64,000 nucleotides of DNA, taken from an uncultured Candidatus Saccharibacteria bacterium. GTDB lineage: Bacteria > Patescibacteriota > Minisyncoccia > Phycocordibacterales > JAKAEA01. The notes beneath the pieces were generated by a model. The model had not been told where the DNA came from. It saw only the letters and a program-made list of their open reading frames with translations, and did no database searches. The stretch lies in contig CAZNZK010000001.1 of assembly GCA_964577595.1 (NCBI GenBank), forward strand, positions 208,144 through 272,143. The letters are read 5' to 3'. The translations under genes and the position numbers were made by a program. Positions 26,611-50,418 of this stretch are shown here, piece by piece; position 1 is the stretch's first letter, and every line of letters starts with the position of its first letter.

Positions 26611-27888
26611 GTGGGCCTTATAAGCAGTATGTATAACAACACTCCAGGCCGCTCATCCGGCTCGCATTCTTCGTTTAATAAACCAATATCGCGCGGGCCT
26701 TCTTTCGGCTCACGCGGTTCATATAACCCTCGTTTTAGCGGGGCGCCTAGCCGTGGTCGCTTCCCTGCTCGCCGTATCGCGCCTCGCATTGACGTCTCCC
26801 GCTACATTAATAAGAGCGCTGTGCCTGTGGCACCAACTGCACCCTATGTGCCCGAGCACGCCTTCGATGATTTTGCCATTACTGAAAAACTCAAGGCTAA
26901 TATTATAACTAAGGGCTACACCACCCCTACCCCCATCCAGGATAAATCCATTCCTGTGGTTTTGGCTGGCTCCGACATTGTTGGCATTGCCAACACGGGC
27001 ACCGGTAAAACTGCCGCCTTTTTGATTCCGCTTATTAATAAAGTACTGCTCAACCCACGTGAACTGGTGCTCATTGTGGTGCCGACCCGCGAGCTTGCTA
27101 TGCAAATTGACGAGGAGCTCAAAGGCTTTACCAAAGGCCTCGGCCTCCACTCTGTTGTTTGCGTCGGTGGAGCATCCATTACTATGCAATTGCGGGCGCT
27201 GCGCCTCTTCAATAACTTCGTTATTGGCACACCTGGCCGCATTAAGGACCTTATTGACCGTCGCGCCCTCAACTTGGCCGGTTTCAAAACCGCCGTTTTA
27301 GACGAAGCCGACCGCATGCTGGACATGGGCTTCGTCAACGACATGCGCCGTATGATGGGCCAAATGCCAAAGGAAAAACAAACCCTTTTCTTCTCTGCAA
27401 CTATGTCGCCGGAAGTTGAAGGACTTATCAAAGAATTCCTCCGCAACCCGGTGCGCATTTCCACCAAAACCGGCACCACCGCCAAAAACGTTGAGCAAGA
27501 CGTTGTTCGCGTTGCCCCCGGCCGCGACAAGCTTGATACTCTCCACGACCTTCTCAAAGGCCCCGGCTATGAGCGCGTTTTGATTTTCGGCCGCACCAAG
27601 CACGGTGTGGAACGCCTCTCCCGCACCCTCGTTGAGCGCGGCTTCCTCTCAGCTTCTATTCACGGCAATAAAAGCCAGCCTCAGCGCGAGCGCGCCCTGG
27701 CCGACTTCAAAAATAACCGCGCTAAAATCCTCGTCGCCACCGACGTTGCCGCTCGTGGCCTCGACATTAACGACATCACCCACGTCATCAACTACGACCT
27801 GCCTGCCACCCACGACGACTACATCCACCGCATCGGCCGCACCGGCCGCGGTAATAAGAAAGGCAAAGCCCTTACGTTCGTAGAGTAA
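26611..27888 (+). CDS. DEAD-box ATP-dependent RNA helicase with an about 80-aa N-terminal Arg/Gly/Ser-rich extension.
   Basis: Q-motif, AxTGTGKT, PTRELA, DEAD (VLDEADRMLDMGF), SAT, HRIGRTGR motifs. Confidence 0.85.
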   Translation: MGLISSMYNNTPGRSSGSHSSFNKPISRGPSFGSRGSYNPRFSGAPSRGRFPARRIAPRIDVSRYINKSAVPVAPTAPYVPEHAFDDFAITEKLKANIITKGYTTPTPIQDKSIPVVLAGSDIVGIANTGTGKTAAFLIPLINKVLLNPRELVLIVVPTRELAMQIDEELKGFTKGLGLHSVVCVGGASITMQLRALRLFNNFVIGTPGRIKDLIDRRALNLAGFKTAVLDEADRMLDMGFVNDMRRMMGQMPKEKQTLFFSATMSPEVEGLIKEFLRNPVRISTKTGTTAKNVEQDVVRVAPGRDKLDTLHDLLKGPGYERVLIFGRTKHGVERLSRTLVERGFLSASIHGNKSQPQRERALADFKNNRAKILVATDVAARGLDINDITHVINYDLPATHDDYIHRIGRTGRGNKKGKALTFVE

Positions 27889-27909
27889 TTAACCGGGGTC
27901 AGGCACCGG

Positions 27910-29640
27910 TTATTCGGCCTTCTGCTCTTCTATTGCCTCATCAACTTCGTCCAGGTCAACTTCAATCGCTTCCTTAATTTCTTTTTCAGCCTTCGTTAAA
28001 ATTCTATCGTGCCGTAGATTTTGGAGGATTTCCAAATGTTTTTCTAAGCGCTTCTTCAAAAGAAGTAGTACTTTTGAGGTGCCATCTTTGAGCAAGACAC
28101 TTCGTATCCTAATACCGCTCTCTGAATTGGCATGATGGCGGCCCAGGAAATATGCCGCGAGAAGAAGGACGATGAGAATGAGCAGGGCAATAATTCCGAA
28201 ATTAAGCGCCACAAACGTGTGCGAGCCAATAGTGATCAACAATTGCGATGTGGCTGTGGTGTAGAGACGCGCCGACGACACTTTTGCATTGCCGGAGCCG
28301 GCTTCGGCCCACACGGTGTAATCGCCAGCCGCCAACGGACTGGTTGCCACAGAAAAGCTGGAATCGGAACCAGAGGTTGTTTGTAGGGCAACTGGGTTGT
28401 CAAAATTATGCTTCACATTGATAGTGATAGTGGTATTGGGACTCTGCGCAACGCCGCTAATAAGAAGCGGCTGGTTCGCAGGAACAATTCTGGGCAATGC
28501 GCTAAGCTGTGGCACCAGAATGGCGGTGGCGTGGAAACTACCCGAGGCCGAAGCACTATTGCCCGCCCGGTCAACAGCCACCAATTTCACGGTGTTGTCA
28601 CCGGAGGCATCAAACGGCAGAGCATAACTGCCGCCCGCAAAGTCGGCAGCGGAAATCGTTTTTACCAAAGCATCATTTATATAAATATCGTAGTGGTCAA
28701 TGCCGGAGGTTATGTCCTGAACCTGAGCGCTCATAGTGAGCACTTTAGCAGTATCGTCATAAGAAAATACTGCGTTGTTTTCCTGCGGAGCGGTGGTGTC
28801 TATTCTGGCGATATACGTACTTACTGGCCCCCAAGCATTTTCGTTATGAGCGCGGATTTTGAAATACCAAACTCCGTCCGCCAAGTCGGTAACGGTTTTC
28901 TGAGTAGTGGCAGGATTATAAATAACGTGCGGCACGCCACTGGTTGTGTTATCAATCGTCGTTTGTACCTCATCTACGCCATCAGGAAGAACCCATTGGA
29001 ATTCTGGACTACTGTTGTTATACCATTGGTCCTGGTTAGGATGAGTAGGTGAAGAAATCTGTAGTGCGAGGGCATCGGAGGAAGTGGTTGGGGGCGGAGG
29101 CGTTGGAGCCACTGGCGCGACAGGCGCCACTGGCGTGGGAGCCGCGCTCGGCCCAATAGTAAGCGCCACCCCTTTTTGACCATTAAGAACATTGGTGCCC
29201 AAGCCGTCGTTGGCCCGCACCGCATCGTCACTAGAAAAAACCAAATTGGCCTGGCCGGCCTGTTTTGCCCTGACTAAAATAGCCACAACGGCGCCGCTTG
29301 CGCCAGTGTAGCCGGGAGTAGGCACTCCTCCATTAAACGTAATGGTGCCTGCCGTGTTTGAAAATGTCGGATTCTGCACCCACAAAGAGAAAATGGAACT
29401 TGCACTGTTTACCGAAACAACACTCAAGAGGGCCGCTGGAAAATTAATTGTTGCCTGCGCATTATTTATAGCTACGCCTTGAGAATCTACCGTCACTAAT
29501 AATGTGGCAGTGTCGCCCGGCGCGAGCGTTGTTACGTTTGAGGCAATTTGCAGAGTGGCGGCGTGCACGCTACCGTATCCTAAAAAGAATACGCCGAGCG
29601 AAATTAGTGCACTACCATATAGTATTTTATTTTTTAACAT
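27910..29640 (-). CDS. Membrane-anchored surface protein: signal peptide, cohesin-like domain, Ig/FN3-like domains, C-terminal TM helix and charged cytoplasmic coiled tail.
   Basis: The N-terminal domain (ATLQIASNVTTLAPGDTATLLVTVDS...ATINFPAALLSVVSV...ITFNGG...AILVRAKQAGQANLVF) follows the type-I cohesin pattern (PGDTV..V......YD...L......G..F......G.FATI.AKV). It is paralogous to the downstream gene. C-terminal TM IIALLILIVLLLAAYFL. Confidence 0.65.
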   Translation of the reverse strand: MLKNKILYGSALISLGVFFLGYGSVHAATLQIASNVTTLAPGDTATLLVTVDSQGVAINNAQATINFPAALLSVVSVNSASSIFSLWVQNPTFSNTAGTITFNGGVPTPGYTGASGAVVAILVRAKQAGQANLVFSSDDAVRANDGLGTNVLNGQKGVALTIGPSAAPTPVAPVAPVAPTPPPPTTSSDALALQISSPTHPNQDQWYNNSSPEFQWVLPDGVDEVQTTIDNTTSGVPHVIYNPATTQKTVTDLADGVWYFKIRAHNENAWGPVSTYIARIDTTAPQENNAVFSYDDTAKVLTMSAQVQDITSGIDHYDIYINDALVKTISAADFAGGSYALPFDASGDNTVKLVAVDRAGNSASASGSFHATAILVPQLSALPRIVPANQPLLISGVAQSPNTTITINVKHNFDNPVALQTTSGSDSSFSVATSPLAAGDYTVWAEAGSGNAKVSSARLYTTATSQLLITIGSHTFVALNFGIIALLILIVLLLAAYFLGRHHANSESGIRIRSVLLKDGTSKVLLLLKKRLEKHLEILQNLRHDRILTKAEKEIKEAIEVDLDEVDEAIEEQKAE

Positions 29641-30292
29641 ACTTTTTGTAGCGGAACCAAAGAGCCACGCTTACCAAGCAGAGCACACCAACGGCCGATA
29701 GTAGAATAAGTATATCATTTTGCTCATGGGCAGATTGGGGAGATGTTTGGCTTGTAGCGTTAGTGGTTGGCAAAGGCACAACAATTCCCGGGCTCTGCCG
29801 ATTAACCGCAATGGCGATCGGCTGAGCCGTGACGTTCTCCTCGGTGCCCTGTCCATTATTAAGATAGACCGCGCCATTAGTTAACGACATTTGCACTGTG
29901 CCCGCCACGGCGGGTTTAATGCGCAAGCGAAAAAGGAGACCCTCGTGGTTAAACCCTCCGGGAATGCCGCCCGTAAAACTCACACTCGCCGTATCTGGGC
30001 TGTAATGGGGGGAAGTAGGCCAGAGACTTAAAAGAGACTTAGCTGTATCCGCCTCAACTGAAAGCTGGTCGCCGGCTATCCCCCCAAAATCAACAGAACC
30101 CTGTACGACGTTGAGATTTTGCGATTGAGGATCAACGCGAACTTCAACGATAGTGGCGGTATCTCCTGACACGGTATTCGGTACGACATTGAAAGTGATA
30201 AGAGCGGCCCGCGCGTCATGTGGCGAAACAAGTGCGCACAAGGCCGCAATTCCGATTACAAAAAAAGAAAAAAGTGAGTTACGCATGGTCAT
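29627..30292 (-). CDS. Membrane-anchored cohesin-like domain protein (signal peptide, single cohesin-like domain, C-terminal TM anchor).
   Basis: ALITFNVVPNTVSGDTATIVEVRVDP...VSFTGGIPGG...LLFRLRIKPAVAGTVQMSL cohesin-like pattern. C-terminal TM ILILLSAVGVLCLVSVALWF plus KKYVKK. Confidence 0.65.
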   Translation of the reverse strand: MTMRNSLFSFFVIGIAALCALVSPHDARAALITFNVVPNTVSGDTATIVEVRVDPQSQNLNVVQGSVDFGGIAGDQLSVEADTAKSLLSLWPTSPHYSPDTASVSFTGGIPGGFNHEGLLFRLRIKPAVAGTVQMSLTNGAVYLNNGQGTEENVTAQPIAIAVNRQSPGIVVPLPTTNATSQTSPQSAHEQNDILILLSAVGVLCLVSVALWFRYKKYVKK

Positions 30293-30298
30293 ACAACG

Positions 30299-33200
30299 TT
30301 AGTCTTTTAGCGCAAGGGCTGTGTCTGTCCATTCATAGAGCATAATTGAAAAGTCTATGGAATCGACCTTGTTGTCGTGGTTAATATCTACCGAAGAATT
30401 TTTATATGGAGCCTTTGTTCCCCAAAATGCCAGGAGGATGGAGAAATCAATCGCGTCTACTCTGCCATCATGGTTAAAGTCGGATGTTGTCAATTTAGAA
30501 TTCACTAAATTAGGAGTGGCGACTACCAGGTTGCCCCCTCCACCTCCTCCCCCTCCTCCACCGCCACCTCCACCACCTCCTCCCCCGCCGCCATTAGTAG
30601 AAACGGGAGCGGTTGCGGTGAATGACTGGTCGGCCGTAGAAAAGCTGGAGCCAAATTGGACATTTAAATGAAACCAATAATTTCCGGCATTTGGCACCGT
30701 GGAATTGAGCGTTGTGTCAAAATTTTGACCGGGCTGGATAAGCTTGGCATTCTGGCCGTCAAAAATGTCGGCGCTACCGCACGAGCCCACCTCTGAACTG
30801 GTGACGCACCAGTTATATGTGTATTCAGATTGGGCCTGGCCTTCGTTGGTTATTCTAATCGCCGTGGAAATATTCGGAGTGGTTAGGCTCGGGAAACTCT
30901 GGATGAGGACTTGCGCTGGCGAGCCCGGCGTCGCGCTTACCACACCAGAAGGTGTGCCTTGATTGATGGCATTTTTAGCAATCACTCGGAAATTATACGC
31001 AACGTCGTTGGAAAGGCTCGTCACTGTTGTGGCAGGCGTAGTTCCTACTCCATCATCAAATATGGCCCAGGTGCCACCCGTAGCTAATTCGTATTCAACA
31101 ATGTAGTCGGCGATTGAGGAGCCCCCATCAGAAACGGGCGCTGACCAAGAAAGACCAATGCTACTGTCGGCGACTGTGGCTGTGAGGTTTTGCGGCGCGC
31201 TTGGAATACTTGCGGGCGTAATGGAGTTACTTGTTCCCGATGATGTACTCGTGCCTTCCGCGTTAGTGGCGCTAACGGTAAATGTATATGGTGTGCCGTT
31301 AGTGAGGCCGGTGACCGTGGCTACCGTAGAACCGCTCATGGCACTATGCAAGCCATCGTTGGAAGTAACCGTGTAATACAGGATGGTTGAGCCGCCGTTG
31401 AACGACGGGGCCGACCACGAAACAGTGGCGCTCGTATCGCCGGTCACGGCCGCAACGTTGGTCGGAGCGTTTGGAACGGTCGCCGGCGTTGTTGCGTTGC
31501 TGGAGAGTGAGGAGGTGCTTGTGCCAACCGAGTTCGTGGCAGTCACCGTAAAGGTGTAAGTGGTGCCGTTAATGAGGCCAGTGACGGTGATGGGCGAAGC
31601 GCCGCCCGAAGCAGTGTGACCATCGTTGGAAGTAACGGTGTATGAGGTGACCGTGGCGCCGCCAGTATTGCTTGGCGGAGTGAAGGTGACCGTGGCATTG
31701 CCATTTCCGCTAGTGGCAGTGACGCTCGTCGGCGCGTCGGGAACAGTAGCAGGCACGACTGAATTACTTGTACCTGAGGACGTACTGGTTCCAACAGCGT
31801 TGCTGGCGGTGACCGTGAACGTGTAGGTGGTGCCATTAGTGAGGCCGGTGATTGTTATAGGCGACGAGCCACCGGTTGCGGTGAATCCTCCGACATTTGA
31901 AGAAACCGTGTATGTCGTGATGGCCGAGCCGCCAGTGTTGCCAGGCGCTGTGAAAGTAATTGTGGCTTGGCCGTTGCCACCGGTGGCTGTGCCGATCGTC
32001 GGCGCATTCGGAATGGTAGCCGGCGTTACTGAATTAGTGGTGGCTGAAGGCGTGCTCGTACCAGCTGAGTTTGAGGCGGTCACCGTAAACGTATACGTGG
32101 TGCCATTAGTGAGGCCGGTGATTGTTATAGGCGAGGAACCACCCGTTGCCGTGTGCCCGTCGTTGGAAGTGACGGTGTAGTAAGAAATCGTGGATCCCCC
32201 ATTATTTCCGGGAGCCGAGAACGTGATAGTGGCTTGGCCATTTCCTCCGGTTGCCGTGCCAACAGAAGGCGCATTCGGAACTGTGGCCGGAGTGACCGAG
32301 CCACTAGCAGACGAGGCAGTGCTCGTGCCTGCAGAATTGGTGGCGGTAACCGTGAACGTGTATGCAGTGCCGTTGGTAAGGCCGGTGACGGTGATTGGAG
32401 ATGAACCGCCATTTGCCGTGTGGCCGTCGTTTGAGGTAACCGTATAGGTAGTGATTACGGAGCCACCGTTATTTCCGGGCGCGGTGAATGTGACGAGCAC
32501 CTGACCATTACCGCTCGTGACCGAACCGATTGTGGGCGCATCAGGAATAGTCGCTGAAGTGACTGAATTACTGGTGGCCGAAGCGGTACTCGTGCCCACG
32601 GAGTTGGTCGCGGTAACCGTGAACGTGTAGGTCGTGCCGTTGGTGAGGCCGGTCACCGTAATCGGCGAGGAACCGCCGGTTGCGCTGTGGCCGTCGTTAG
32701 AAGTGACGGTGTAGTACGAAATTGTTGCCCCTCCATTATTTCCGGGAGCCGAGAACGTGATGGTAGCCTGACCATTGCCGGAAGTGGCGGTACCTATGCT
32801 TGGAGCATTAGGAACAGTAGCTGGCGTGGCCGAATTAGAAGCGCTTGAAGCCGTACTCGTACCAGCGGAGTTGGAAGCCGTCACCGTAAAAGTATACGAC
32901 GTGCCGTTGGTGAGGCCGGTCACCGTAATCGGCGAGGAACCACCCGTTGCGCTGTGGCCGTCGTTGGAACTAACCGTGTAATAAGAAACGCTCGCGCCGC
33001 CGTTATTTCCGGGAGCCGTAAACGCGACGGTGACCTGACCATTTCCGGCAGTGGCGGGGCCAATTGTCGGCGCGTCGGGAACCGTTGCTGGCGTAACTGA
33101 ATTACTTGCGGCGGAAACAGTGCTTGTTCCTACTCCGTTGGTAGCCGTTACGGTAAATGTGTATGTAATACCGTTGGTGAGGCCGGTCACCGTAATCGGC

Positions 33201-36200
33201 GAGGAACCGCCCGTTGCGCTGTGGCCATCGTTTGAGGTGACGGTATAATACGAAATTGTTGAGCCGCCATAATTTACCGGTCCGGAGAAAGAGATTGTGG
33301 CCTCGCCAGGACTTTGTGTTGCCGTGCCAATGGTTGGAGCGTCAGGAACAGTCGCTGGCGTCACTGAATTTGAAACCGAAGAAGCGGTGCTTGTGCCGGC
33401 CGCATTCGTGGCAGTCACCGTAAACGTATAGGTGGTGCCATTCGTCAGGCCAGTAATTGTTACGGGCGAAGAACCGCCCGTGGCAGTGTGACCATCGTTG
33501 GAACTAACTGTGTAATAAGAAACTGTGGCCCCTCCATTATTTCCGGGAGCCGTAAAAGTAATGGTTGCTTGCCCGTTTCCGGAAGTAGCCGTGCCGATAG
33601 TTGGCGCATTCGGAGCCATGGCAGGAGTGACCGAGTTAGTCACGCTGGAAGCAGTGCTGGTACCCACGGCATTACTTGCTGAGACGGTGAATGTGTAGGT
33701 CGTACCGTTAGTGAGGCCGGTTATTGTTATAGGTGACGAACCGCCCGTGGCAGTGTGACCGTCATTAGAAGTGACAGTATATGAAGCCACAGTGGCTCCC
33801 CCATTATTTCCGAGTGTCGAGAACGAAATCGTGGCCTGCCCGTTTCCGCCAGCGGCAGTCACACCGCTAGGAGCATCTGGAACTGTAGCTGGCGTAACTG
33901 AATTTGAAACGGAAGAAGATGTACTGGTGCCCACACTATTAGTAGCGGTAACTGTGAATGTGTAGGTTGTACCGTTACTTAGTCCCGTAATAGTAATTGG
34001 GGATGAACCGCCGGTTGCCGTAAATCCGCCAATGTTTGAACTGACTGTGTAATACGTAATTGTGGAGCCTCCATTATTTCCGGGGGCCGAGAAAGAAATG
34101 GTAGCCTGACCATTGCCGCCAGTGGCGGGCCCAATTGTCGGCGCGTCGGGAACCGTTGTCGGCGTCACTGAATTTGAAACTGAAGAAGCTGTACTTGTGC
34201 CAACCGCGTTCGTAGCGGTCACCGTAAACGTATAGACCACACCATTAGTGAGGCCGGTCACCGTAATCGGCGAGGAACCGCCGGTTGCGCTGTGGCCGTC
34301 GTTGGAAGTGACGGTGTAGTACGAAATTGTTGAGCCGCCATAATTTACCGGTCTGGAGAAAGAGATTGTGGCTTCGCCAGGAGCTTCTGTTGCCGTTCCG
34401 ATGGTTGGAGCGTCAGGCGTCGTGGCCGGCACGACTGAACCGCTTGTGCCAGAAGGAGTACTTGTGCCAGCACCATTGGTCGCGGTCACCGTGAATGTGT
34501 AGGTCGCGCCGTTGGTGAGACCGGTAATGGTGATTGGTGAATTACCACCCGTCGCGGTGTGCGGTACGTCGGTCAGGGAATTGGAAGTGACGGTGTAATA
34601 GGTGATATTTGAACCATTGTTATTTGGCGCAGTGAACGTGACGGTGGCTTGGCCAGTGCCAGCAGTGGCAGAGACATTAGTTGGAAAATCTGGAGCCGCG
34701 GCGGGCATGACCGAATTACTTGTTCCCGATGAGGTGCTGGTGCCCACCGCATTGGTCGCGGTCACCGTAAACGTGTAGGTCGCGCCGTTGGTGAGACCGG
34801 TAATGGTGATTGGCGAATTACCACCCATCATAGTATGCGGTACATCGCTCAAGGAACTTGAGGTAACCGTGTAATACGAAATTGTTGAGCCGCCGTAATT
34901 TACCGGCCCGGAGAAAGAGATTGTGGCTTCACCAGGAGCTTCTGTTGCTGTTCCAATAGTTGGCGCGTCTGGAATGCTAATAGGTGTGACCGAATTACTT
35001 GTTCCCGATGAGGTGCTGGTGCCCACCGCATTGGTCGCGGTCACCGTAAACGTGTAGGTCGCGCCGTTGGTGAGACCGGTAATGGTGATTGGTGAAGTGC
35101 CACCAGTCGCGGTGTGCGGTACGTCGGTCATGGAGTTGGAAGTGACGGTGTAATACGAAATTGTTGAGCCGTTATTGGCTGGCGCGGTGAAGGTGACAGT
35201 GGCCTCGCCAGGACTTTGTGTTGCCGTTCCGATCGTCGGCGCGTCAGGAGAGGTAGCCGGCATGACCGAATTACTTGTTCCCGATGAGGTGCTGGTGCCC
35301 ACCGCATTGGTCGCGGTCACCGTAAACGTATAGACCACACCATTAGTGAGGCCGGTCACCGTAATCGGCGAGGAACCGCCGGTTGCGCTGTGGCCATCGT
35401 TTGAGGTAACCGTGTAGTACGAAATTGTTGAGCCGCCATAATTTACTGGTCCGGAGAAAGAGATTGTGGCTTCACCAGGAGCTTCTGTTGCTGTTCCAAT
35501 AGTTGGCGCGTCTGGAATGCTAATAGGTGTGACCGAATTACTCGATAACGAAGCACTGCTTGTGCCGATGCTATTTGTCGCGGTGACGGTGAAATAATAC
35601 GTTAGACCATTCGTAAGGCCCGTAATAACTATGGGCGATGCCCCACCAGTAATGCTATGCAAACCATCAGTAGAAGTGACGGTGTATGAAGTTATCGTCG
35701 AATAGCCATCATTAACGGGTGCGGTAAAAGTAACAATGGCTTCGCCAGGAGCTTCTGTCGCCGTTCCAATGATTGGCGCGTCCGGAGCGGTAGCGGGAGT
35801 GATTGGGAGTGAGGAAAGTGAGGGAGTGCTTGTTCCTACGCCGTTTGTCGCAGTGACGGTGAAGGTGTAGGTTGAGCCGTAGGTCAAGCCACTAATAGTT
35901 ATCGGTGAAGTGCCTCCACTCATAGTATGCGGAACATCACTCGTGGAATTGGAGGTTACGGTGTAGTACGAAATAGTGGAGCCGTTGCTGTTTGGATATG
36001 AAAAAGTAATCGTGGCTCCATCATCATTTCTGACTGCCGAAATAATTATCGGTTGGTCGGGAACGGTAGCTGGCATCACTGAAAGACTCGAACCTGAAGC
36101 GGTGCTCGTGCCAACCGAGTTGGTAGCAGTAACAGAGAAAGTGTACGTCGCGCCGTTAATCAAACCACCGATAGTGATGGGCGAAGCGCCTCCACTCATG

Positions 36201-39200
36201 GTATGCGGAGTATCACCCAAGGAGCTGGACGTCACGGTGTAGTACGAAATTGCGGAACCATTGTTGGCCGGTGTAGTGAACGTAATAGTAGCTGTGCCAG
36301 GACCCCCAGTAGCGGAGGTGATGACGGGAGCGTCTGGAGCAATAGCTGGCATCACGGAACCACTCGTGTTTGACATGGTACTGGTACCAACGCCATTGGT
36401 CGCAGTAACGGTGAACGTGTAGTTAACACCATTAGTAAGATTAATAATTGTAATTGGTGATGAGCCGCCGTACGCCGTGTCACCGTAATTAGAGGTGACG
36501 GTGTAATACGAAATAGTGGAGCCGTTATTGGCCGGTGTAGTAAAAGTGATGGTTGCCGAACCGGGGCCGCCAGTAGCGGAGGTGATGACGGGAGCGTCTG
36601 GAGTTGTGGCGGGCATAACAGAACCACTAGTGTTTGACATGGTGCTTGTGCCAGCAGAATTCGTGGCCGTCACCGTGAACGTGTAGTTAATACCATTGGT
36701 GAGATTGGTAATTGTAATTGGCGACGAACCACCGATTGCCGTGTCACCGTAATTAGAGGTGACGGTGTAATACGAAATAGTGGAGCCGTTATTGGCCGGT
36801 GTAGTAAAAGTGATGGTTGCCGAACCGGGGCCGCCAGTAGCGGAGGTGATGACGGGAGCATCGGGAACGGTGGCCGGCATCACGGAGTTGCTCGTGACCG
36901 AAGCCGTGCTGGTGCCGGTGGCATTAGTTGCTGTTACGGTAAAAGTGTATAGGACGCCATTAGTTAGGCCATAGATCGTAATTGGTGAATTACTGCCGGT
37001 TATTGTATGTGACACGTCGGCTAAAGAACTGGAAGTGACGGTGTAATAAGTGATAGCAGAACCACCAAGATTAGTCGGCGCTGTGAAAGTGATGGTAGCT
37101 TGGCCATTACCACCAACCGCGACAACGTTCGTCGGCGACCCTGAAACAGTTTGATAATCAAGATACGCATAAGTAGAGCTCGGAACAATATCCCAAATTG
37201 GCGTGGCAAAATCCCAGTTGGAATATGTGGCGAGCAACATCATTGAGTTGTTACTCTCGCTGTTCATACCGGAAGGATCCACAGCACCAGTGCCAAGACC
37301 GTTGTTGTGGAGCTTTCCAGAAGTGTCCGTATCCCAATAATCGGAAACATAGGTGCCGCCAGCACTGCCGGTCATACCGCCGACGTTGCGTACTCCCACC
37401 GTAGTACCATTCGCGCCGGCGCTACCGGTGCCACCCGCTCCACTACCGGTGCCAGTAGCACCACCCGCACCACCGAGAGCGGCAAGAGTGCTTGTGCCTG
37501 AAGGCGCGCCAATTGAATACGCGTTCGTAACCGTTGCAGTGTTGCTACCCATCAGGCCGCCGATGTATGCATTACCGCCGTTGCCGCCAGTGCCACCATT
37601 CAAACCGGCGCCAGCGGTACCCAATGTACTTCCGCCACCTTTAGCACCACCGGCGCCACCCTGGCCACCGTTGCCGCCTTTAGCGGCCAGGCCAGCAGTT
37701 GAGCTCGCGGTTCCTAATGCATAGGCATTAGTGATAGTTCCCGTATTTGTGCCGATTAAACCTCCGGCATACACATCACCGCCCGCGCCACCGTTGCCGC
37801 CGTTAGAACCATTCGTGGCCGGGCCACCGTTGCCGGTAGCGCCGGAGCCACCAACACCACCGTTGCCTCCTATGCCGCCAGTGGCGCCAACAATTCCATT
37901 GCCTCCAATCACCTTCACATTACCGGAAGCATAACTGGTGCTAATACTACCCGTTGAAATATTTCCGCCAACGAGCCCGCCGCCGTAGCTGAAGCCGCCA
38001 GTACCACCATTACCCTCTGTTACCACGCCACCACCAGTACCGCCAATGCCACCGCCACCTGTTCCGCCATTGCCACCAGTGCCAGCTACCCCAGCAAGAC
38101 CAGCCGCGCCACCGTTGCCGCCAACAATGGTAACGTTCCCCGCCGACCAGGAATATTGAATTATGCCCGCGGTGTAGTTATAACCGACTAGTCCCCCAGC
38201 GTAGGCCGCGCCGCCGTTGCCAGCCGCGGCAGTTGCTCCTTCTGCGCCACCCGTGCCACCAGCACCCGTTGCGCCGCCGTTGCCACCGACGCCACCTATA
38301 CCACCCGCGCCTCCGGCACCGCCGGTTGAACCATTAGCATTTACTGCTCCGATAGCATATGTCGTATATAAAGTACCTAAGTTATAGCCAGTAAAGCCTC
38401 CGGCATACGTGATACCGCCGTTAGTACCAGCGGTTCTACCCCCTGCCTGACCACCATTACTACCGTTGCTTGCGGAAGCGGCTGTGGTGGTACCTATACC
38501 ACCAGTGCCGCCAGCACCGCCAGCACCGCCAGCACCAGCAGTCGCCGTTACTGTTCCTAATGCATAAGAATCTTTAATAATCATGCCGGTAAAATTTTCT
38601 CCGGCAAAACCACCACCATAGACGATGCCAGCTGTGCCTGCGGCACCACCTGTTCCTCCAACGCCACCCTGGCCACCCACACCAACCGTGCCAACAAAAC
38701 CAGAAACGCCATTGCCACCAACACCGCCAGTACCGCCAGTGCCAGCAGTACCTGTGGCGTTATTAGTTGAATAAGAGTTGATCTCAATAAAACCATCGTT
38801 ATAACCAACAAAACCTCCTATATATAGAGCACCTCCCACGGCATTCGTGGCAGCAGAACCGCCGGTACCACCGCCACCGCCGATACCAACACTTCCAGCC
38901 GCGCCGCCGGTGCCGCCAGTACCTCCCGTGCCGCCGTTGCCGGCAATTCCAGTAACCGTTTGCCCAATAGCATAACTGGTGAGCGTTGTGTTTGTCGTGT
39001 CAATATTATTTCCAATCAGACCGCCGACATATGCCGCGCCGCCGGCGCCGGAAGCGCCTCCGTTGCCGCCCAATCCTCCCGCATGACCACCGACTCCCAA
39101 CGAGCCGTCACCACCCGTGCCGCCGTTACCGCCGGCGGCACCGTTGTTACCTATTGCCGTAACAGAACCGGCCGCGTACGAACTAATAATGACACCGTTG

Positions 39201-42200
39201 GCCGCGTTGTTAGCAACAAGGCCACCAGCATAAGCAACACCAGCGTTTCCACCGACGCCGCCCACGCCACCAGAAGCGGCCGTACCACCTGAAAGTGCTC
39301 CGCCAGTAGCGCCGCCCGTGCCACCAACGCCAGCCGTGCCCGCAGTGCCGCTAGTTGACGTGGCATTCCCTGTTGCATACGAAGTGTTTTCAATAATACC
39401 GGCGTTGGAACCGATTAATCCTCCCGCATAACTCGTGCCACCAGTGCTGGAAGTGCCACCAGTGCCGCCCGTGCCACCCTTGTTCAAAGATCCACCAAGA
39501 CCGCCAATAACCCCAGTAACTCCATTACCCGAAGAGCCGCCCGTGGCCACAACATTCTCGGTGGAATGACTACCAATAATAGAGAGATCCGTGTTTGCAC
39601 TCGCGCTTGTTTGGCCTATTAAGCCTCCGGCATAAGCGTTGCCACCAGCACCACTCGTACCACCAGCGAGCGTCCCGCCACCGGCAAATGCACCAGCACC
39701 GGCTCCAGAATATCCAGCACTACCACCCTGGCCGCCCTGACCACCCTTTGCTGAGACAATATTAGTTGTAGAGGTTGCGGCGGAATTCTGATAATTGCCA
39801 GTTCCACTTGTGACACTGCTGTACCCTACCAAGCCACCAGCATCAGCTTCACCACCTGCACCGCCGTTGCCGCCGACGCCACCGTTACCGCCAAGGGAAC
39901 TTCCTGTGCTACTGGCTGCATTACCGCCAACGTTTCCAATACTGCCAATTCCTCCAGTTGAACTGGCAAAACCAATCGCAAATGAATTTATAAAATTATT
40001 AATGCCGGTAGTGAACCTATTATTACCGATTAAACCTCCGGCGTAAGCGTTGCCACCCACGGCAGCCGCGACCGCGGCGGGACCGCTCACTCCAGTTACT
40101 GTTGTAGTTGAAAGACCGGCACTACCTGAAGAACCGGCCGTGCCGGCATTTCCTCCTAATGCTGAAACGTTGCCGAGAGCATAATCATTTAAAAAGTTGC
40201 CTGTGCCGGCTGCAAAACTACTGAAGCCTACGAGGCCACCAGCATCGGCTTCACCACCGACCCCAGCCACGCCGCCCAAAGCACCAGTCGATCCCACGTG
40301 CCCCGTTGTGCCATAAAAACCACTACCGCCGTTGCCACCAGTGCCACCGTTGCCACCGTTGCCGCCGACAATCGAGACTGTTCCAGTCGCGTAAGAATTT
40401 ACGACCTGGATAGTAAGTGCCGCTCCAGAAATAGTTCCTACTAAGCCACCGCCAAACACAACACCACCAGCTCCGCCTATTCCACCTGGAAACCCAGCAG
40501 CCGCCGTTCCACTTGAGGTTGTTGTTCCGGAAGTACCACCAGCGCCACCGTTGCCGCCAAGACCGCCGTTGCCACCCGTCATAAAAATAGTAACTAAAGA
40601 ATATGACGACTGCTGAATGACGCCCAAATCGTTACCGATAAGCCCTCCGAATTCTAACGTCCCAGAGTTGCCACCGTTGCCACCGATGAGTCCGACACCG
40701 CCGACGCTACTGCCAGCTCCCGCGCCACCATTGCCGCCGTTGCCACCAATACCGCCAGTTTGCTCAACACCCGTGATTGTCAGAGATTGCGAATACGAAG
40801 AAGAAACTGTTGCGGAACTATAGCCTAATAGTCCGCCAACAATAGCACCGTTTGTTGCCCCTCCGACAGCAGCTGTTGTACCGCCGACACCGCCGACACC
40901 GCCACTCACAACCGCCGAGCCGCCGTTGCCGGCATTACCGGCATTACCAGTGCCGCCGGTATTAATATAAATATTTCCCGCTCCGGAAATCGGATCAACA
41001 CTCGTCCACGAAGCAACGACGTCTGCCACCGTATAGCCCGCCAATCCACCAGCATATACAATTCCGGAAGCGCCACCAGCGCCGGCGTTAGAGCCAGCCG
41101 CTCCTCTATTAGCAACTCCACTAATACCGTTTGATCCATTTTGACCGGAGCCTCCGGCAATGTTAAGAGTTGTTTCGGAATACGATCCGTTCACTACGCC
41201 AGTACTGTAACCTACGAGCCCACCGGCATATACTGACCCGCCAGCGCCACCGGCACCGCCAGCGCCGGCAAGACCGCTCAAGCCGGTACCAGTTCCAATG
41301 CCACCTGTGCCTCCCTGAACAGATGCCCCACCGGCACCACCAGTAGCAGTGACCGTTCCCGACACGGCATACGAGTTGCTAATAGTCCCCGTTATATTTT
41401 GTCCGACGAGACCGCCGGCTTGCACTGCTGTTGCTGGTGGGCCAACACCGCTGGCACCAGGACCGCCCGCTCCACCGACGCCGCCAATGCCACCAGTTTG
41501 GTTGACACCGGCAGAACCATCACCGGCATTACCACCAATGCCACCCTGGCCGCCAATGCCACCAGTGGTTGAAGCATTCGCCATCGCATACGAATTATTA
41601 ATAATCGCTCCGGCTCCGGTATTTATTCCCACCAAACCACCAATGTTGACCGCGCCACCCGTGCCACCAAGGAATCCGGCACCGCCAGCTGCTGTGGTTG
41701 AGGCGGATAAAAATGCCCCGGAAGCGCCAGCGTTGCCGCCCGCACCACCAATACCACCGCTACCAACATTCGCCGTTACCATACCGAGAATATGATAGTC
41801 ATATTGCAGAGTACCTGAATTTGATCCAATCAAACCGCCGGTATAATTAACGCCACCGTTGTTGCCAGCTACCCCGTTGCCGCCAATGCCGCCTATAAAC
41901 TGGCCGTTACCGGCACCGCCAATACCTCCGGAACCGCTGTTGCCACCATTTCCTGAAGTTCCCGTAACAGCTCCGGTAGAATATGAACTGTCAATTTCGC
42001 CGGAAGTCACGAATCCAACCAGACCTCCCACGTAGACCGTGCCACCGAGACCGCCGGCAATTCCGGTGCCACCGTTGCCACCTGGATTATTAGCCCCAAG
42101 TCCACCCTTACCACCGTTACCTCCAATGCCAGCGTTACCAGCGGAGATGGAAACGGTTCCGGTGGCATAGGCATTACTGATAAAAATATTTGTGTTGGTA

Positions 42201-45200
42201 AATCCTACCAATCCTCCACCGTAAGCAAAACCTCCTGCGCCGCCACCGGCGCCGTTGCCGCCGTTGCCGCCCGACATTGTGGTTGTGGCGGTTGTGGTAC
42301 CGTCTCCACCTAAGGCACCGAAACTTCCCGTTCCACCAACCTGCCCTATAACTAAAATATTTCCCGTGGAAGAGGCGTTGCTAATAGTATCTCCGGTACC
42401 GCCAATATATCCAAAAAGACCGCCGACATATGTATAGGAACTGGCTGCGCCACCGGCACCACCCGCGCCGCCGTTGCCGCCCAAAGCTCCAACAGTTCCG
42501 TTAATCGCTGTACCACCGGTGCCACCCGTGCCGCCCGTCGCGTAAACATTGCTCGTTGAATAAACAGCATTAAATAAAAGATCATTGGTAGTATTGTTGT
42601 AGCCGGCGATACCTCCAACGTACACCGCCCCGGTTATACCACCACCACCGCCAGTACCGCCGGTGCCATTTCTACCTCCCAACCCACCAGCCGGACCGCC
42701 CGTGCCGCCCGTTCCACCCGTGCCACCGCCCGCGCCCAAAACCGCATTGATAGTTCCATTCTGGCTATTTGATGACAAAATATCTCCGTTGTCTTGACCG
42801 GCTAAACCTCCCATATATAGAGCACCACCGGTGCCACCCGTGCCGCCGGCACCGGCCGCACCACCGCTATGACCGTTGAGTCCTAATGTTCCATCACCAC
42901 CGTTTCCTCCTTGGCCAGCAGCAGCACCGGGTGTTCCATCTGCCGTCATACTGCCAACCACTATCACTGAAGAATTTATAATGACTCCCGGATTATCACC
43001 GGTAAGTCCTCCTATATATGTAGCGCCACCAACGCCGCCGTTGCCACCAGTGTTACCAGCACCTCCTGTGCCGCCAATAGCAGCACCGGAAGCTCCAGCC
43101 TTACCACCCGTGCCGCCAGCACCGGCCGTACCGCCATTAACTGAAATAGTAGTAACGGTGTACGTAACGCCACTAATGATACCCGTATTTGAACCGGTCA
43201 CCCCACCACCATACGCCGCGCCGCCGTTGCCGCCCGCACCACCAATGCCACCGGCACCACCGATAAATCCTGAGGTGCTTGTGGCATTTCCTCCGGCGCC
43301 ACCAGTACCACCATAACCTCCGAGGCCCCCAGTTGAATAAATTCCTCCCGTATTATTTGCCGTGCCTATTGTTGATCCAGCAACGCCGTTCCAAGCAACA
43401 ACACCACCAACATAGGTGGCCCCACCGTTGCCGCCAAGACCACCAACAACAGCGGCTTCGGATACTCCGTTGATACCCGTTCCGCTCGTGCCGCCATTTC
43501 CAGCATTACCGCCATAACCGCCGGTGCCACCGGTTGATGTAGCATTCCCCATCGCATAAGAATCAACACCCACCAACCCCAAGTTGTTTGCTATCAAACC
43601 ACCCGAGTAACTCGCGCCGCCCGTGCCGCCAGCACCGCCAATGTTGCCGGCACCACCGACAACTCCACCACCGGAGGAATTACCACCATTAGCGCCGGGA
43701 GCACCAGGAGCGCCAGTGCCGCCGGTTGAGCTTGCTGTCCCTAGTGCATATGAAAAATTTTGAACAATACCGTTGGCGCTGTTTTGCCCCAGCAAACCTC
43801 CGGCGTAGGCAGGGCCGCCAGCACGAGCAGTAATCAAAGCGCCAGTATCAAGCGCGCCGTTGGCACCGCCAGCCATACCAGTTGACCCACTACCACCAAG
43901 ACCGCCGGAACCAGGCGCGCCACCAGTACCACCGAGCGCGGAAACATTTCCTGTCGCATACGAATGATCAATAACGCCCGTGCTCAGCGCTACTAAACCC
44001 CCAGCGTAAGCGGTTCCGCCAAGACCACCGATCGCGCCGCCAGTGCCACCAGTGGCTCCAACGCCACCAGCACCGCCAGTGCCACCGTTTCCAGCATTGC
44101 CCGCTACTGATGTTACCGTCGCGGCGGCATAAGAATTTGCTTGAATAAAACCAGCTACGTTATTTCCCACCCCACCACCTGCATATGAAAACGCTCCCAG
44201 GCCTCCGGTGCCACCAGTGCCGCCGGCACCACCAAGAGCCCCACTGCCACCAATACCGCCGGCACCGCCGGTAGCTCCGTTGCCACCAGAACCAGCGGTA
44301 GCGGTTACGGAACCGGCAGAGATATATGAATTGGTAATTGTTGAAGAGTTGTATCCGGCAATACCTCCGCCATAAGCCGCGGCTCCGGCACCACCCGTAC
44401 CGCCCTGCACTCCGGAAGCGCCAACTTGACTCGCGCCTCCCGTAGAACCATTACCGGCTGCTCCGGCAGCTGCTCCGGGTTGGCCAGAAACTGAAAGAGC
44501 AATAACCGTGGTTGACGCGGTTGAGCTGGCAATAATAGTGGTGTTATATCCCACCAATCCACCAGCGTAAGCAATAGCACCAGTACCACCAGTACCGCCA
44601 GTGCCACCCGCCGCGGCAGTAGCAGCAATAGTTCCGGTAGTGGTGCCGGCCCCGCCACCCGCGCCACCTAAACCAGGAATACCTGAGGTTGACGTGACAT
44701 TTCCAATAAAATTATTTCCACCCTGGACGATGCCGGCACTATCTCCAATAAGCCCGCCGGCGTAAGATACGCCGGCAGTGCCGCCCGTTCCACCACTGCC
44801 ACCGACACCGCCGATAGAGTTGGTACCGCCAGCTCCGCCACTGCCACCATTGCCAGCATTGCCACCCTGACCACCGTTCGCAATTATGGATCCAGTTGAT
44901 GAGGCTGTTGTTACTGTGCCGGCAACAAAGTTTCCGATTACTCCTCCACTGAAGGCGTTGCCACCCGTGCCGCCGCCAAGACCACCCAGCCCGGCGCCGC
45001 CGGTAGTTGACGTTGCCGTTCCACCAGCTCCGCCATTACCACCAACGCCACCCGCGCCGCCGTTCGCGGTTATGGTGCCAATTGAATATGAACTTAGAAT
45101 ATCTCCGTTATTTTGATCACCGACAACTCCGCCAACATATGCAACACCGCCAGTTAAGCCGGCGCTACCAGCAACACCGGACGTGCTCGTCGTTCCCACA

Positions 45201-48200
45201 CCACCATTTGCTCCGGCACCACCAGCTCCGGCTGTGCCTGTGAGGTTCGCCAAAAAATAACTACTCGTAATAGTTGGCCCTGAGTTGTAACCGGTAATTC
45301 CGCCAGCGTAAATAATCGCGCCGATAATCGCCGTGCCGGCAGCACCAGGCGTGCCACCAGTGCCGCCAGGCCCCGCGCCGCCGACACCGGCAGCGCCACC
45401 CGCTCCGGCTATTCCGGAAATATTTCCCGTCGTATGATAGCTGTTCGTAATAATATTGGTATTATTGCCGGATATTCCTCCTATATATAGAACGCCAGCG
45501 GCGCCGCCCGTGCCGCCACCGACGCCAGCATAGCCGAGCAAGCTCGCCGCGCCCGTTCCTCCGGTGCCACCGGTGCCACCATTAGCCGAGAGTGCATTTT
45601 GAGAAAATGAGTTTTGAATGGTTCCCGTATTGCTTCCGACAAGCGCGCCCGCGTAAGTTGCTGTTCCGTTAGCGGAACCTCCCGTGCCTGAAGTGCCACC
45701 CGTGCCGTTTGCGGCGCCGGATGTGCCTTTAGCACCGCCAATTCCGCCCGTGCCACCCATGCCACCATTGCCGCCCGTCACCGTAACAAGCCCCGCAGTG
45801 GAATCAGCCATACTAATAAGTCCCGCGTTTAATCCCACGAGACCACCGGCATATGCAGCGCCACCAACGGCACCGTTCGCCGCATTGCCGCCATTGCCGC
45901 CGCTCGCCGCCGTACCACCCTGGCCGCCCGCGCCGCCATTGCTACCATTCTTACCAGCAGATCCTGTGGCCGTTACGGCACCGCTTGCATATACAGTACT
46001 TGTTGCCCCGGTGATAATTCCATCAGCACTATTTTGCGCTACTAAGCCTCCGGCATAAGCAATAGCTCCAGCACCACCAATGGCACCGGCGCCACCGCCT
46101 AGGGCAGTCGCTGTTGATGCGGCCGCACTGGTACTGGCCATGCCACCGGCAGATGCATTACCCGCAATGCCGGCAAGTGACTGCACCGTGCCGGTAGCGT
46201 ACGAACCGGTCTCAATAGTTCCTAAATTGTTTGCCACCAAGCCACCGGCAAATGAGTTGCCACCCGCGCCGCCAACAGCACCGTTGCCGCCTGCACCGCC
46301 AGTAGCAGCCACGTTGCTGTTACCACCCTGCCCGCCCGTACCGGCAATTCCCGCCACGCCGCCAGCGCCACCATAGGCCGTAACATTTCCAGTTGCCGCG
46401 GAAGCCATAATCGTGCCAGTGTTGAGCCAGCCAATCAAGCCGCCGACATAGCTAATGCCACCAGCACCGGGAATACCAACACTGCCTCCACCACCGCCTG
46501 TTCCCGTGCCGAAGTTCATACCACCATTGCCACCGTTACCACTGGCGCCGCCCGCGCCGCCGCTACCAATAACCGCAACCGTGCTCAACGCGTTCGTGAT
46601 ACTACCTTGTGCAGACCACCCAACCAGACCTCCAATATAAACGACGCCACCAGTGGCACCGGCATTCGTTGGCGTCGTGCCTCCCACACCGCCAGTGTTA
46701 GCAAAACCAGCCGGAGTATCACCGCCGTTACTCGCGTTTCCTTCAGTACCGCCCGCGCCGCCCGCGCCAGTTACTGTTCCAGAGATATTAATATTTGAAA
46801 TTGTTCCGGCGTTATAGGCGACCAGGCCGCCGACATAAATGTTGCTACCCGCGGTACCGGCAGAGTTGTTATTACCAGGAGTGCTTGTCGCCACGGCTGC
46901 GGCATTAGCGGTACTCAAGCCCGGCGTGCCTGTCGCCGAAATAAGTAAATTTGCCAGAGTGAGATTTTGAATGTTACTGCTGTTATATCCAAAAAGACCG
47001 GCGTAGGTTATGGAGCTTGAAGCAATAAATAAGTTGCTGACCGTAAATCCATTACCATTGAAATTTCCCGTGAAGCTTGTCGTGTTATTTCCTATCGGCA
47101 CAAAACCACTGCTTGAATTCCAGGATGAAGTCACGGTCGCGTCAACACTGCTGTTAAGCTGGTAAGAACTCGTCAGGTTGGTTTTGACCCCCTGCAAGCC
47201 ATAGACGTCATAAATTATATACGGATCATTCGTTGAGCCGATACCGGTGTACCTTCTAAACGTACCGGCATTGATGGCAAAATTATTGCCGACGGAAAAA
47301 TAGTTGTTGGCAGGATTCCCGACCGTGAGAGTAGCAAAGTAGGTGCCGGAGTTTTGAATAAAATTGTTTGTAATCGCCAGGTTGGCGTTCTGGTTGATGC
47401 TTCCGGCGAAGCCGTTTATGGAGAATGAACTGATAGTTGAAGAAGCATCAATTGTCACAATGGAGGAAGCGATTCCGGAGTTTCCATCAAAAATGACCGT
47501 AGTTGTGGTACCAGGCGCATTCACGGTGCTGGTGAAAGTGGCACCGGAGGAAGTCGCCCAGTGAGTGCCACCGACATCCGACCAAAGCCCCGTGCCATTA
47601 ACCCAATAAGCAGTAGCCGGAGGAGTCACCGGGTCAACGATGTAGTCAATGTCTATGTTTCCGGAAATTCGCAAATCAAAAAGGTCGGTCGGTGTTTGCA
47701 AGTCGGGCATCAGAATCCGATACTTTCCTTCCTGATTAATTTGAAATGTTGCGTGGAGCGCGTCGCCTTCCGTAGTACTTCCTTCGGCGTCAGTATATAC
47801 CGGGTACACGGTTATTGAACCCGTCTGGCTCGCATCGTCCGCTTTGGCATAGAGTGTGACGTCGTTTGTGTTGTTCAAAATTTGATCAAACGTGACCCGG
47901 ACAGATTGGCCGGAAGCGATGGTAGCGTAGTTTCCATCTTGCGCCTGCACGAGGCTATAAATATCACCGATCGGGTTAAGATTCGCGTCCAACTGCAAGG
48001 CTTTGGAAATGTAAATAATTTGAAATGTTTGAGTTGAAAGGTGCGGCACAATCCACTGAAGGTGATCAATGTACCCATTGCCATCTTCATCAAGCGCGGT
48101 AAATTGCATTGGTTGACCGCCATTGTTCGCCCAATTTATTTTAATTTGATTTTCTTGACCCACTTTAAAGAGTTCTGGAATAGTAATGGTGACCGGTACG

Positions 48201-49738: not shown

Positions 49739-50323
49739 TTAGCTAACGAGCACCGCCGTCACCACAAGACGATCGTTATAGGTACCGGTCTGCGGCAAAT
49801 AGGTGCCATAGCAGGTAATAATTTTAAGAAGCGGCTGGCCGCTGTCGGCGAAAATCTGGCCGCTGGGAAAAGCGCTGACGCTGTAAATATCGAGAGAAGT
49901 AACTTTAAAATGAGAGACGCCACCAAGCACATTGGTTACGTAAATATCGTCGCCAGCAACCAGGGTGTGGAGATTTTTAAAAACGCCGGGAATAGCGGCA
50001 CCGTTATCAACGTGGCCGTCAATTACCGCACTGCCTATGCCGCCAACCACGGGCCCACGGTCATACCAACCGGCCTGCACGAAATTGTGTGGCACATCAA
50101 GTGCACCAGCCGGAGTAATATCAACAGGCACAATTGAAGCCCGCTTGCCAATTTGCGGAATGAAAAGCGAGGCCGGAGCGCCGGCTACGGGCCCGATAGT
50201 AGCCGGCGTATTTTGGGCATAAGCCGGAGAAATGGTTAGAAAAAAGCCGCCGAAAGCCACGGATGTGGTAACGACGAGCACAAGTGAAGTGCGAGCGATA
50301 CTGGCGCGAAATGAAAGTTGCAT
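49739..50323 (-). CDS. Sortase-family transpeptidase (class E/F-like) with an N-terminal TM.
   Basis: His region GSAVIDGHVD. Catalytic-Cys context LLKIITCYG (TLxTC-like). Followed by conserved R (NDRLVV). Confidence 0.7.
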   Translation of the reverse strand: MQLSFRASIARTSLVLVVTTSVAFGGFFLTISPAYAQNTPATIGPVAGAPASLFIPQIGKRASIVPVDITPAGALDVPHNFVQAGWYDRGPVVGGIGSAVIDGHVDNGAAIPGVFKNLHTLVAGDDIYVTNVLGGVSHFKVTSLDIYSVSAFPSGQIFADSGQPLLKIITCYGTYLPQTGTYNDRLVVTAVLVS

Positions 50324-50418
50324 AAGAGTTGAAATATGGCTTAAATAAAAGGTTTTTAAACGAATACAAAGATATTTTAGCACGAAAAAATAGGTGTGTA
50401 AAGGGCTTCGGTTCGAAA

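Follow-up and report, generated by a model that had tools for sequence, protein, structure and literature searches.

The DNA analyzed here, referred to as the window, is a stretch of 64,000 nt from an uncultured Candidatus Saccharibacteria bacterium (contig CAZNZK010000001.1), an ultrasmall member of the candidate phyla radiation (CPR). Its minus strand carries a giant open reading frame (ORF) for a protein of 6,183 aa, which contains a tandem array of 23 fibronectin type III (FN3) units, designated u1 to u23 from the N-terminal side. The array is a known kind of stalk array and reveals no new mechanism. We consider it probable that it forms the stalk of a giant secreted CPR protein resembling fibrillar adhesins, and that it turns over slowly and in frame, with no on/off switching; what we infer in this reading is that the array serves as a stalk or spacer, how the protein is anchored and how fast the array changes. 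The gene and its parts are as follows.

30299..48850, minus strand: giant ORF, 6,183 aa (ORF list and translation), frame intact and no N
37301..46933, minus strand: Gly-rich repeat region with 'YAGGLVG...' motifs (translation; no Pfam match)
30920..37144, minus strand: FN3 array, 23 tandem units (Pfam fn3, unit table and unit-profile matches)
36866..37144, minus strand: u1, the N-terminal-most unit (unit table)
30920..31204, minus strand: u23, the C-terminal-most unit (unit table)
30605..30916, minus strand: cryptic 24th beta-sandwich, predicted FN3/Ig-like, with a conserved Cys pair (AlphaFold and Foldseek)
30534..30589, minus strand: imperfect GGN codon repeat that specifies most of the poly-Gly linker of 22 residues (Tandem Repeats Finder and translation)
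30341..30484, minus strand: C-terminal type I dockerin (Pfam Dockerin_1, E 6.4e-13, 49.1 bits against a cut-off of 22.9, in two stretches)

From the N-terminus, the domain order is a Sec-type signal peptide (read from the translation), a Thr/Ser/Asp-rich linker, a non-repetitive domain of ~450 aa, the Gly-rich region of ~3,200 aa, the 23 FN3 units, the cryptic beta-sandwich, the poly-Gly linker and the dockerin.

Three approaches agreed on the number of units. Pfam fn3 (PF00041) gave 23 separate matches (E 3.6e-175; score 569 bits, cut-off 25), and exactly 23 were also recovered by scanning for a motif and by a profile derived from the units. The original prediction, made from the letters alone, had placed 23 FN3-like repeats of about 270 nt at 30929-37208. 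Its count was borne out by all three approaches, and its period is right as well; its low end lies within 9 nt of the array boundary and its high end is 64 nt too far. The units measure 88-95 aa (264-285 nt) and follow one another head to tail on the minus strand, u1 starting at 37144 and u23 ending at 30920. All 23 are distinct from one another, and they share a conserved framework (YTFTVTATN, GLTNG). Tandem Repeats Finder reported three sub-arrays; their periods are 264-276, and matches amount to 73-82%.

The same prediction called the units highly similar, a description that the measurements contradict. Mean pairwise identity across units is 66% for amino acids and 63% for nucleotides, and adjacent units are 48-87% identical at the nucleotide level. 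In columns with an identical amino acid, the same codon is used in 39% of cases, compared with 33% expected by chance from the array's own codon usage. As this is close to chance, most duplications are old, and selection on the fold keeps the proteins alike; synonymous sites are near saturation. The closest pair is u2/u3 (87% nt, 92% aa), and the claim that these two differ at only a few residues is correct for the protein, where 7 of 88 positions differ, but not for the DNA, where 34 of 264 do, with 22 codons differing synonymously overall. The differences are unevenly distributed. The two units are identical at nt 7-128, and 32 of the 34 mismatches fall among the 136 positions of the 3' half, which is thus only 76% identical.

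Against this background, a few unit pairs have long exact repeats in common, and the following, all in the giant gene, were located.

36474..36859, minus strand: 122-bp exact repeat, u3 (36474..36595) and u2 (36738..36859), 264 bp apart, the longest in the array
34708..35092, minus strand: 106-bp exact repeat, u9 (34708..34813) and u8 (34987..35092), 279 bp apart (shared-repeat scan)
34908..35542, minus strand: 92-bp exact repeat, u9 (34908..34999) and u7 (35451..35542), 543 bp or 2 units apart
34215..35395, minus strand: 83-bp exact repeat, u11 (34215..34297) and u7 (35313..35395), 1,098 bp or 4 units apart
31827..32134, minus strand: 38-bp exact repeat, u20 (31827..31864) and u19 (32097..32134)

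Further exact stretches between unit pairs measure 71, 67, 56 and 50 bp, and the 122-bp repeat of u2/u3 is the longest substrate for recombination or collapse in the array. Unit 9 is a mosaic: its first ~115 nt resemble u7, and its 3' part is identical to u8 across the 106-bp repeat. When variable sites were permuted, only 0-7 of 200,000 shuffles reached the observed run for each of seven pairs (u2/u3, u8/u9, u7/u9, u7/u11, u11/u17, u7/u17 and u7/u8). Such mosaic tracts record earlier gene conversion or unequal crossover within the gene. Exact repeats of 30-122 bp that are both in register and in frame offer sites at which units could be gained or lost.

Phase variation, which the original prediction had also suggested, was not supported. 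All 862 of the 862 20-mers shared within the array are spaced at multiples of 3, and the coding sequence is free of homopolymers of 7 or more and of simple repeats other than triplet ones (no search was made for invertible elements). Because the spacings are divisible by 3 and frame-shifting repeats are absent, an exchange between units would leave an in-frame, in-register protein changed by whole units. The AT-rich region upstream of the gene has nothing longer than A7-A8 tracts, and promoter-like matches there occur at chance level. On these criteria the gene is not a phase-variable (contingency) gene; exchange between units can alter its length in frame but cannot switch it on or off. A more plausible site of slippage is the imperfect GGN tract of the poly-Gly linker, and slippage there would likewise be in frame. 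This linker has 22 residues in the window compared with ~5 to 14 Gly in the homologs that were read, and a JGI contig (L112) that ends within the tract differs from the window there only.

Other contigs of the same species were found by exact look-up of the 221-aa protein encoded next to the giant gene. A 250-kb MEGAHIT contig from another sample (L113) has 1 mismatch to the window in 15,420 bp. It is collinear with the window, without a mismatch, from u23 back into u8, thus reproducing u9-u23 exactly, and ends at window position 35046, inside the 106-bp u8/u9 repeat. A contig from a Logan assembly (L111) is 100% identical to window positions 27821..31856, spans u20-u23 and ends at 31856, inside the 38-bp u19/u20 repeat. 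In this species, short-read graphs break rather than collapse at exact repeats. Independent reproduction covers 15 of the 23 units, leaving out u1-u8 with the most similar pair, u2/u3; the last homolog search for u1-u8, among entries that seem to be cut at about 1,500 aa, gave no same-species sequence, with nothing above 58% identity. The giant protein was absent from the protein cluster collection.

A search with an alignment of the C-terminal module yielded 104 related loci, all at most 68% identical to the window. These comprise 58 loci from genome records, nearly all labelled as metagenome-assembled genomes (MAGs) of CPR/Patescibacteria, and 46 metagenome contigs without a taxon label. Among the 100 loci that were scored, 12 are small genes that encode a signal peptide, one FN3 unit, the beta-sandwich and the dockerin, and 40 have a multi-unit array bounded upstream; the 38 of these that are gap-free hold 5-27 units, and the other two (L003, L025) have N-gaps. 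The comparison of repeat number across related MAGs that had been proposed as a check thus gave a range of 1-27 units among bounded loci, with 27 in the closed chromosome CP066698.1. Twelve bounded loci have exactly 13 units. In 48 of 88 loci (single-unit genes excluded) the contig ends inside the array, and 100-N gaps lie in or at the array in four (L003, 9860..9959; L004, 621..720; L005, 7409..7508; L025, 9815..9914). The gap is at the same relative position in L003 and L004, which come from two samples, and in L005, a syntenic NCBI MAG, it takes the place of almost the entire array.

Within 32 related arrays, units have a mean identity of 0.64-0.73, and with 0.65 the window array is therefore typical of the family. 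Between species, positional orthologs are found only for the last two units and sometimes the first, whereas an interior unit matches paralogs of the same array better (74-94% aa) than any unit elsewhere (~70-74%). On sequence comparison, conserved edges with a paralog-like interior are the classic signature expected of interior turnover or homogenization over the long times between species. Bounded multi-unit arrays in the relatives mostly have odd unit numbers (11, 13, 15, 17, 21, 27), with 31 odd and 7 even, and the window has 23. Shared ancestry among loci may contribute to this excess. A two-unit super-repeat was rejected as its cause, as identity-by-lag profiles lack a general lag-2 periodicity, L024 being the sole exception.

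Three near-identical pairs of relatives were informative for length change on a shorter time scale. L007 and L065 are 99.6% identical and have 13 units each; no other locus with exactly 13 units is in the near-identical list. L081 has 5 units and L024 has 11, in a pair that is 97-98% identical. The blocks missing from L081 (534 bp and 1,074 bp) coincide exactly with the two longest exact repeats of L024, which are 289 bp at a distance of 534 and 197 bp at a distance of 1,074. The difference fits equally homologous recombination and a short-read shortcut through the repeat. The third pair consists of L030 (OY970354.1, a closed chromosome) and L087, which share 5.9 kb at 100% identity and have 16.5 and at least 21 units, respectively. 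L030 lacks a 654-bp block of L087 at a 4-bp microhomology, out of the domain register, and the 5' edge of the array also differs. Within L030 1..11300 the giant gene is split over three frames, and the domain that joins the Gly-rich region to the FN3 array is missing, so that this copy is either a decaying pseudogene or the product of long-read indel or assembly errors. Clean unit-wise recombination was ruled out for L030/L087 by the out-of-register microhomology and the frameshifted gene. The length differences in these two pairs could be real or assembly artefacts.

The remaining parts of the protein were examined with structure prediction and profile searches. An AlphaFold model (alignment A1) of u23 and the C-terminal module has a pLDDT of 77-95 over the first 200 residues, with the poly-Gly region disordered. 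In Foldseek, u23 and the following domain aligned over ~210 columns with tandem FnIII pairs, the best match being titin A77-A78 (E 5.7e-9, probability 1.00). Because the model aligns with solved tandem pairs, the domain after u23 is predicted to be a cryptic 24th FN3/Ig-like beta-sandwich; this fold check covered u23 and the following domain. Membership of the units in the FN3 family thus has a profile match above the cut-off on its side, and for u23 and its neighbor a match of the modeled fold. Toward the N-terminus, residues 1-3816 match no Pfam family at E<=0.01 and thus have no recognized adhesive domain. This includes the ~3,200-aa Gly-rich region, which is likely a fiber or beta-helix; homolog fragments carry only the GLUG motif PF07581. 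The region is ~30% Gly, and its repeats cause a strong negative plus-strand GC skew over 38-46 kb. None of the 16 homologs closest to the N-terminal domain (P0001-P0016) exceeds 786 aa, and they appear to be truncated.

Three genes flank the giant gene.

29627..30292, minus strand: 221-aa protein with a signal peptide, a beta domain of ~140 aa, a C-terminal transmembrane (TM) helix and a KK tail, directly downstream
27910..29640, minus strand: 576-aa protein with weak Big_13 Ig-like matches and a coiled-coil-like acidic C-terminus, two genes downstream
49739..50383, minus strand: sortase (Pfam Sortase, E 8.5e-18), immediately upstream

In ~60 of 76 related loci, the gene that ends in a dockerin is followed by a member of the family of the 221-aa protein, whose position is thus conserved. 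Family members have 200-300 aa and share a signal peptide, a C-terminal TM helix followed by a KK tail, and a conserved beta domain ('VEVRIDPQSKxLNVVEG...YLNDGKGT'), to which a DUF7743-like insert is sometimes added. The presence of a dockerin raised the question of a cohesin partner. The 221-aa protein had no Pfam Cohesin match at E<=10, nor did any of 19 orthologs have a Pfam Cohesin match, a PDB profile search found no cohesin, and an hhalign comparison with a verified CipA cohesin (1AOH) gave a probability of 0.4%. A single-sequence AlphaFold model of the protein was unusable (pLDDT 45). The sole hint of a cohesin is one weak precomputed PF00963 match on the neighboring gene of a relative. 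A cohesin identity was thus rejected, as nothing in the Pfam, PDB profile or hhalign comparisons supports it; of a cohesin-dockerin system, the dockerin module was found and a cohesin partner was not. The 221-aa protein is a candidate membrane anchor for the dockerin and may be a new dockerin partner. We tentatively raise the possibility, which we would not put above a minority view, that the two genes form a cassette widespread among CPR bacteria, in which a secreted FN3/dockerin protein is tethered by the downstream membrane protein, a new kind of dockerin receptor. The secreted protein of such a cassette would range from a bare signal peptide to a fiber of ~3,900 aa, with 1-27 FN3 units, beta-sandwich, poly-Gly and dockerin.

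Sortase anchoring of the giant protein was rejected because of the missing LPXTG-like motif, which was found neither in this protein nor in its two downstream neighbors. The upstream sortase is for this reason probably irrelevant to the giant protein and probably does not anchor it. The 576-aa protein may belong to the same surface module. Its gene arrangement recurs in L005, and exact look-up of this protein gave no match.

These observations suggest the following picture. The 23 FN3 domains and the one cryptic domain would form a stalk between the distal part of the protein, i.e., the N-terminal domain and the Gly-rich fiber, and the poly-Gly linker and dockerin. With textbook FN3 dimensions, the length is estimated at ~3.5 nm per domain and ~80 nm for 23 units. 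The C-terminus would be the cell-proximal end, where the protein is presumably held by its dockerin, whose partner may be the membrane protein encoded next door (29627..30292). The array would have grown by ancient unit duplications, after which purifying selection kept the fold and synonymous sites drifted near saturation. Occasional intragenic gene conversion or unequal crossover would re-homogenize patches and add or remove whole units in frame; on a long evolutionary time scale the interior would turn over and the edge units would stay. Few stretches of the present array, namely the exact repeats of 30-122 bp, could serve as substrates, so that its length could change, but slowly and always in frame.

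Several points weigh against this picture. The stalk role is proposed by analogy, and ligand binding is another known role of FN3 domains. The anchoring model is a hypothesis, as the 221-aa neighbor shows no cohesin similarity and its structure model has a pLDDT of only 45. Array length differs in two of the three informative near-identical pairs (L024/L081 and L030/L087), which may mean that arrays retaining long identical units change more quickly. Finally, the assembly check of the unit number reaches u9-u23, and u1-u8 rest on one assembly.

The points on length change would favor a periscope-type locus, i.e., a fast, recombination-driven length variator in which unit numbers that differ among strains tune the reach of the fiber. 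The significant mosaic tracts and the exact repeats of up to 122 bp would be expected of such a locus, as would the 5 and 11 units of L081 and L024 with missing blocks that match repeats of 289 and 197 bp, the 654-bp block and altered 5' array edge that separate L087 from L030 despite 100% identity over 5.9 kb, and the family range of 1-27 units with interiors that are non-orthologous between species. We nevertheless regard a fast variator as distinctly improbable. The window array, with its mean nucleotide identity of 63% (48-87% between adjacent units) and synonymous sites near saturation, differs from SHIRT arrays with 82-100% identity (PMC8201768). The sister strain L113 is identical through 15 units, L007 and L065 both have 13, and the twelve bounded loci with exactly 13 units include only this one near-identical pair. 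The L030 junction, with its out-of-register 4-bp microhomology, belongs to a frameshifted gene. A quite different concern is that the number 23 is itself an artefact, with near-identical units (most likely u2/u3 or u7-u9) collapsed or mis-joined. Related contigs often end inside the array (48 of 88) or carry 100-N gaps there (four loci), the same-species contigs L111 and L113 end inside exact repeats of 38 and 106 bp, L081 looks like a shortcut through the two longest repeats of L024, and independent confirmation stops at u9, with nothing above 58% identity for u1-u8. This explanation also appears improbable to us, as the window has 23 distinct units in an intact 18.5-kb frame with no N, and its assembly evidently passed through the 122-bp repeat and kept both u2 and u3. 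Common read lengths and the usual maximum k both exceed 122 bp. In addition, fifteen units were reproduced exactly by the independent assembly of a different strain, and diverged arrays of up to 27 units have been assembled in closed genomes such as CP066698.1.

A further alternative, which is compatible with the stalk role, is that the FN3 units form a multivalent ligand-binding surface, e.g., for glycans, with unit diversity selected for breadth of binding. The units are indeed diverged and not homogenized, one FN3 protein and one dockerin protein, both essential envelope proteins of a cultivated Saccharibacterium, have been suggested to target host glycans (PMC10633639), and the boundary between stalk and adhesive domains is blurred according to a survey of fibrillar adhesins (PMC8286594). 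On the other hand, the framework of the units (YTFTVTATN, GLTNG) is strongly conserved, and a range of 1-27 units fits a spacer better; we consider this alternative unlikely, though somewhat less so than the preceding two. A slowly changing stalk remains our preferred reading, and it bears on what else the original prediction had claimed for the array. A recombination-prone region is supported by the mosaic footprints and the 30-122 bp exact repeats, but the term hotspot is not, given the identity of L113 over u9-u23 and the equal arrays of L007 and L065. Array length differs among relatives (1-27 units; two of three near-identical pairs also differ, by real change or by assembly artefact), but L113 and the window are the same over u9-u23. 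The array is a difficult site for assembly, as the contig ends and N-gaps of relatives indicate, but 15 units were reproduced, and the graphs break rather than collapse.

An array that is repetitive at the protein level can thus be diverged enough in its DNA to assemble correctly, as was the case for the 15 of 23 units that were independently reproduced; the exact repeats of u2/u3 and u7-u9 are the places for errors or real length changes. Giant surface fibers of CPR bacteria are prime candidates for host attachment, and the family pattern, i.e., 1-27 units, conserved edges, a turned-over interior and a conserved membrane neighbor, offers a testable picture of how such fibers are built and evolve. 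If the cassette proposed above is real, lineage-specific expansion of the interior would set the reach of the host-contact tip of these episymbionts.

Several known systems resemble the protein in part. Periscope proteins, such as SasG/Aap, Rib/alpha C and the Sgo_0707 SHIRT arrays, are defined by long, highly similar DNA repeats, with adjacent SHIRT domains 82-100% identical, and their length varies most where repeat identity is highest (Whelan et al. 2021, PMC8201768). The window protein shares with them tandem folded domains that would project an N-terminal region, footprints of intragenic recombination and a unit number that varies among relatives. It differs in its diverged repeats (63% mean nt) and in the lack of length change relative to a sister strain over 15 units, and the window array does not have the defining feature of periscope proteins. 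Eukaryotic FN3/Ig arrays of the titin type, which gave the best structural matches (3LPW, 8BXR), are similar in fold and head-to-tail order; adjacent-unit identity is higher in the window (~66% aa, up to 92%), and the protein is bacterial, extracellular and from an unrelated lineage. Like cellulosomal dockerin proteins (PF00404), it ends in a duplicated calcium-binding dockerin repeat above the Pfam cut-off, but it has no enzyme module and no detectable cohesin in its neighborhood, and its host is a CPR bacterium rather than a cellulolytic Firmicute.

The closest counterparts are fibrillar adhesins, which have a stalk-plus-anchor architecture (Monzon et al. 2021, PMC8286594). The differences are that the window protein carries no known adhesive Pfam domain in its N-terminal part, ends in a dockerin rather than in LPXTG, SLH or another listed anchor, and has a long Gly-rich region between tip and stalk. 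Judged from sequence, a stalk-type repeat appears to be present (fn3 was not checked against the stalk-domain list of PMC8286594), and a recognized adhesive domain was not found. The shared features are that the protein is secreted and very long, with a non-repetitive N-terminal region, a run of beta-sandwich domains on the C-terminal side and a C-terminal attachment module. Giant FN3 proteins are also known from the same phylum, as Patescibacterium danicum has exoproteins of >5,000 aa that are annotated as FN3 domain-containing (PMC11809585).

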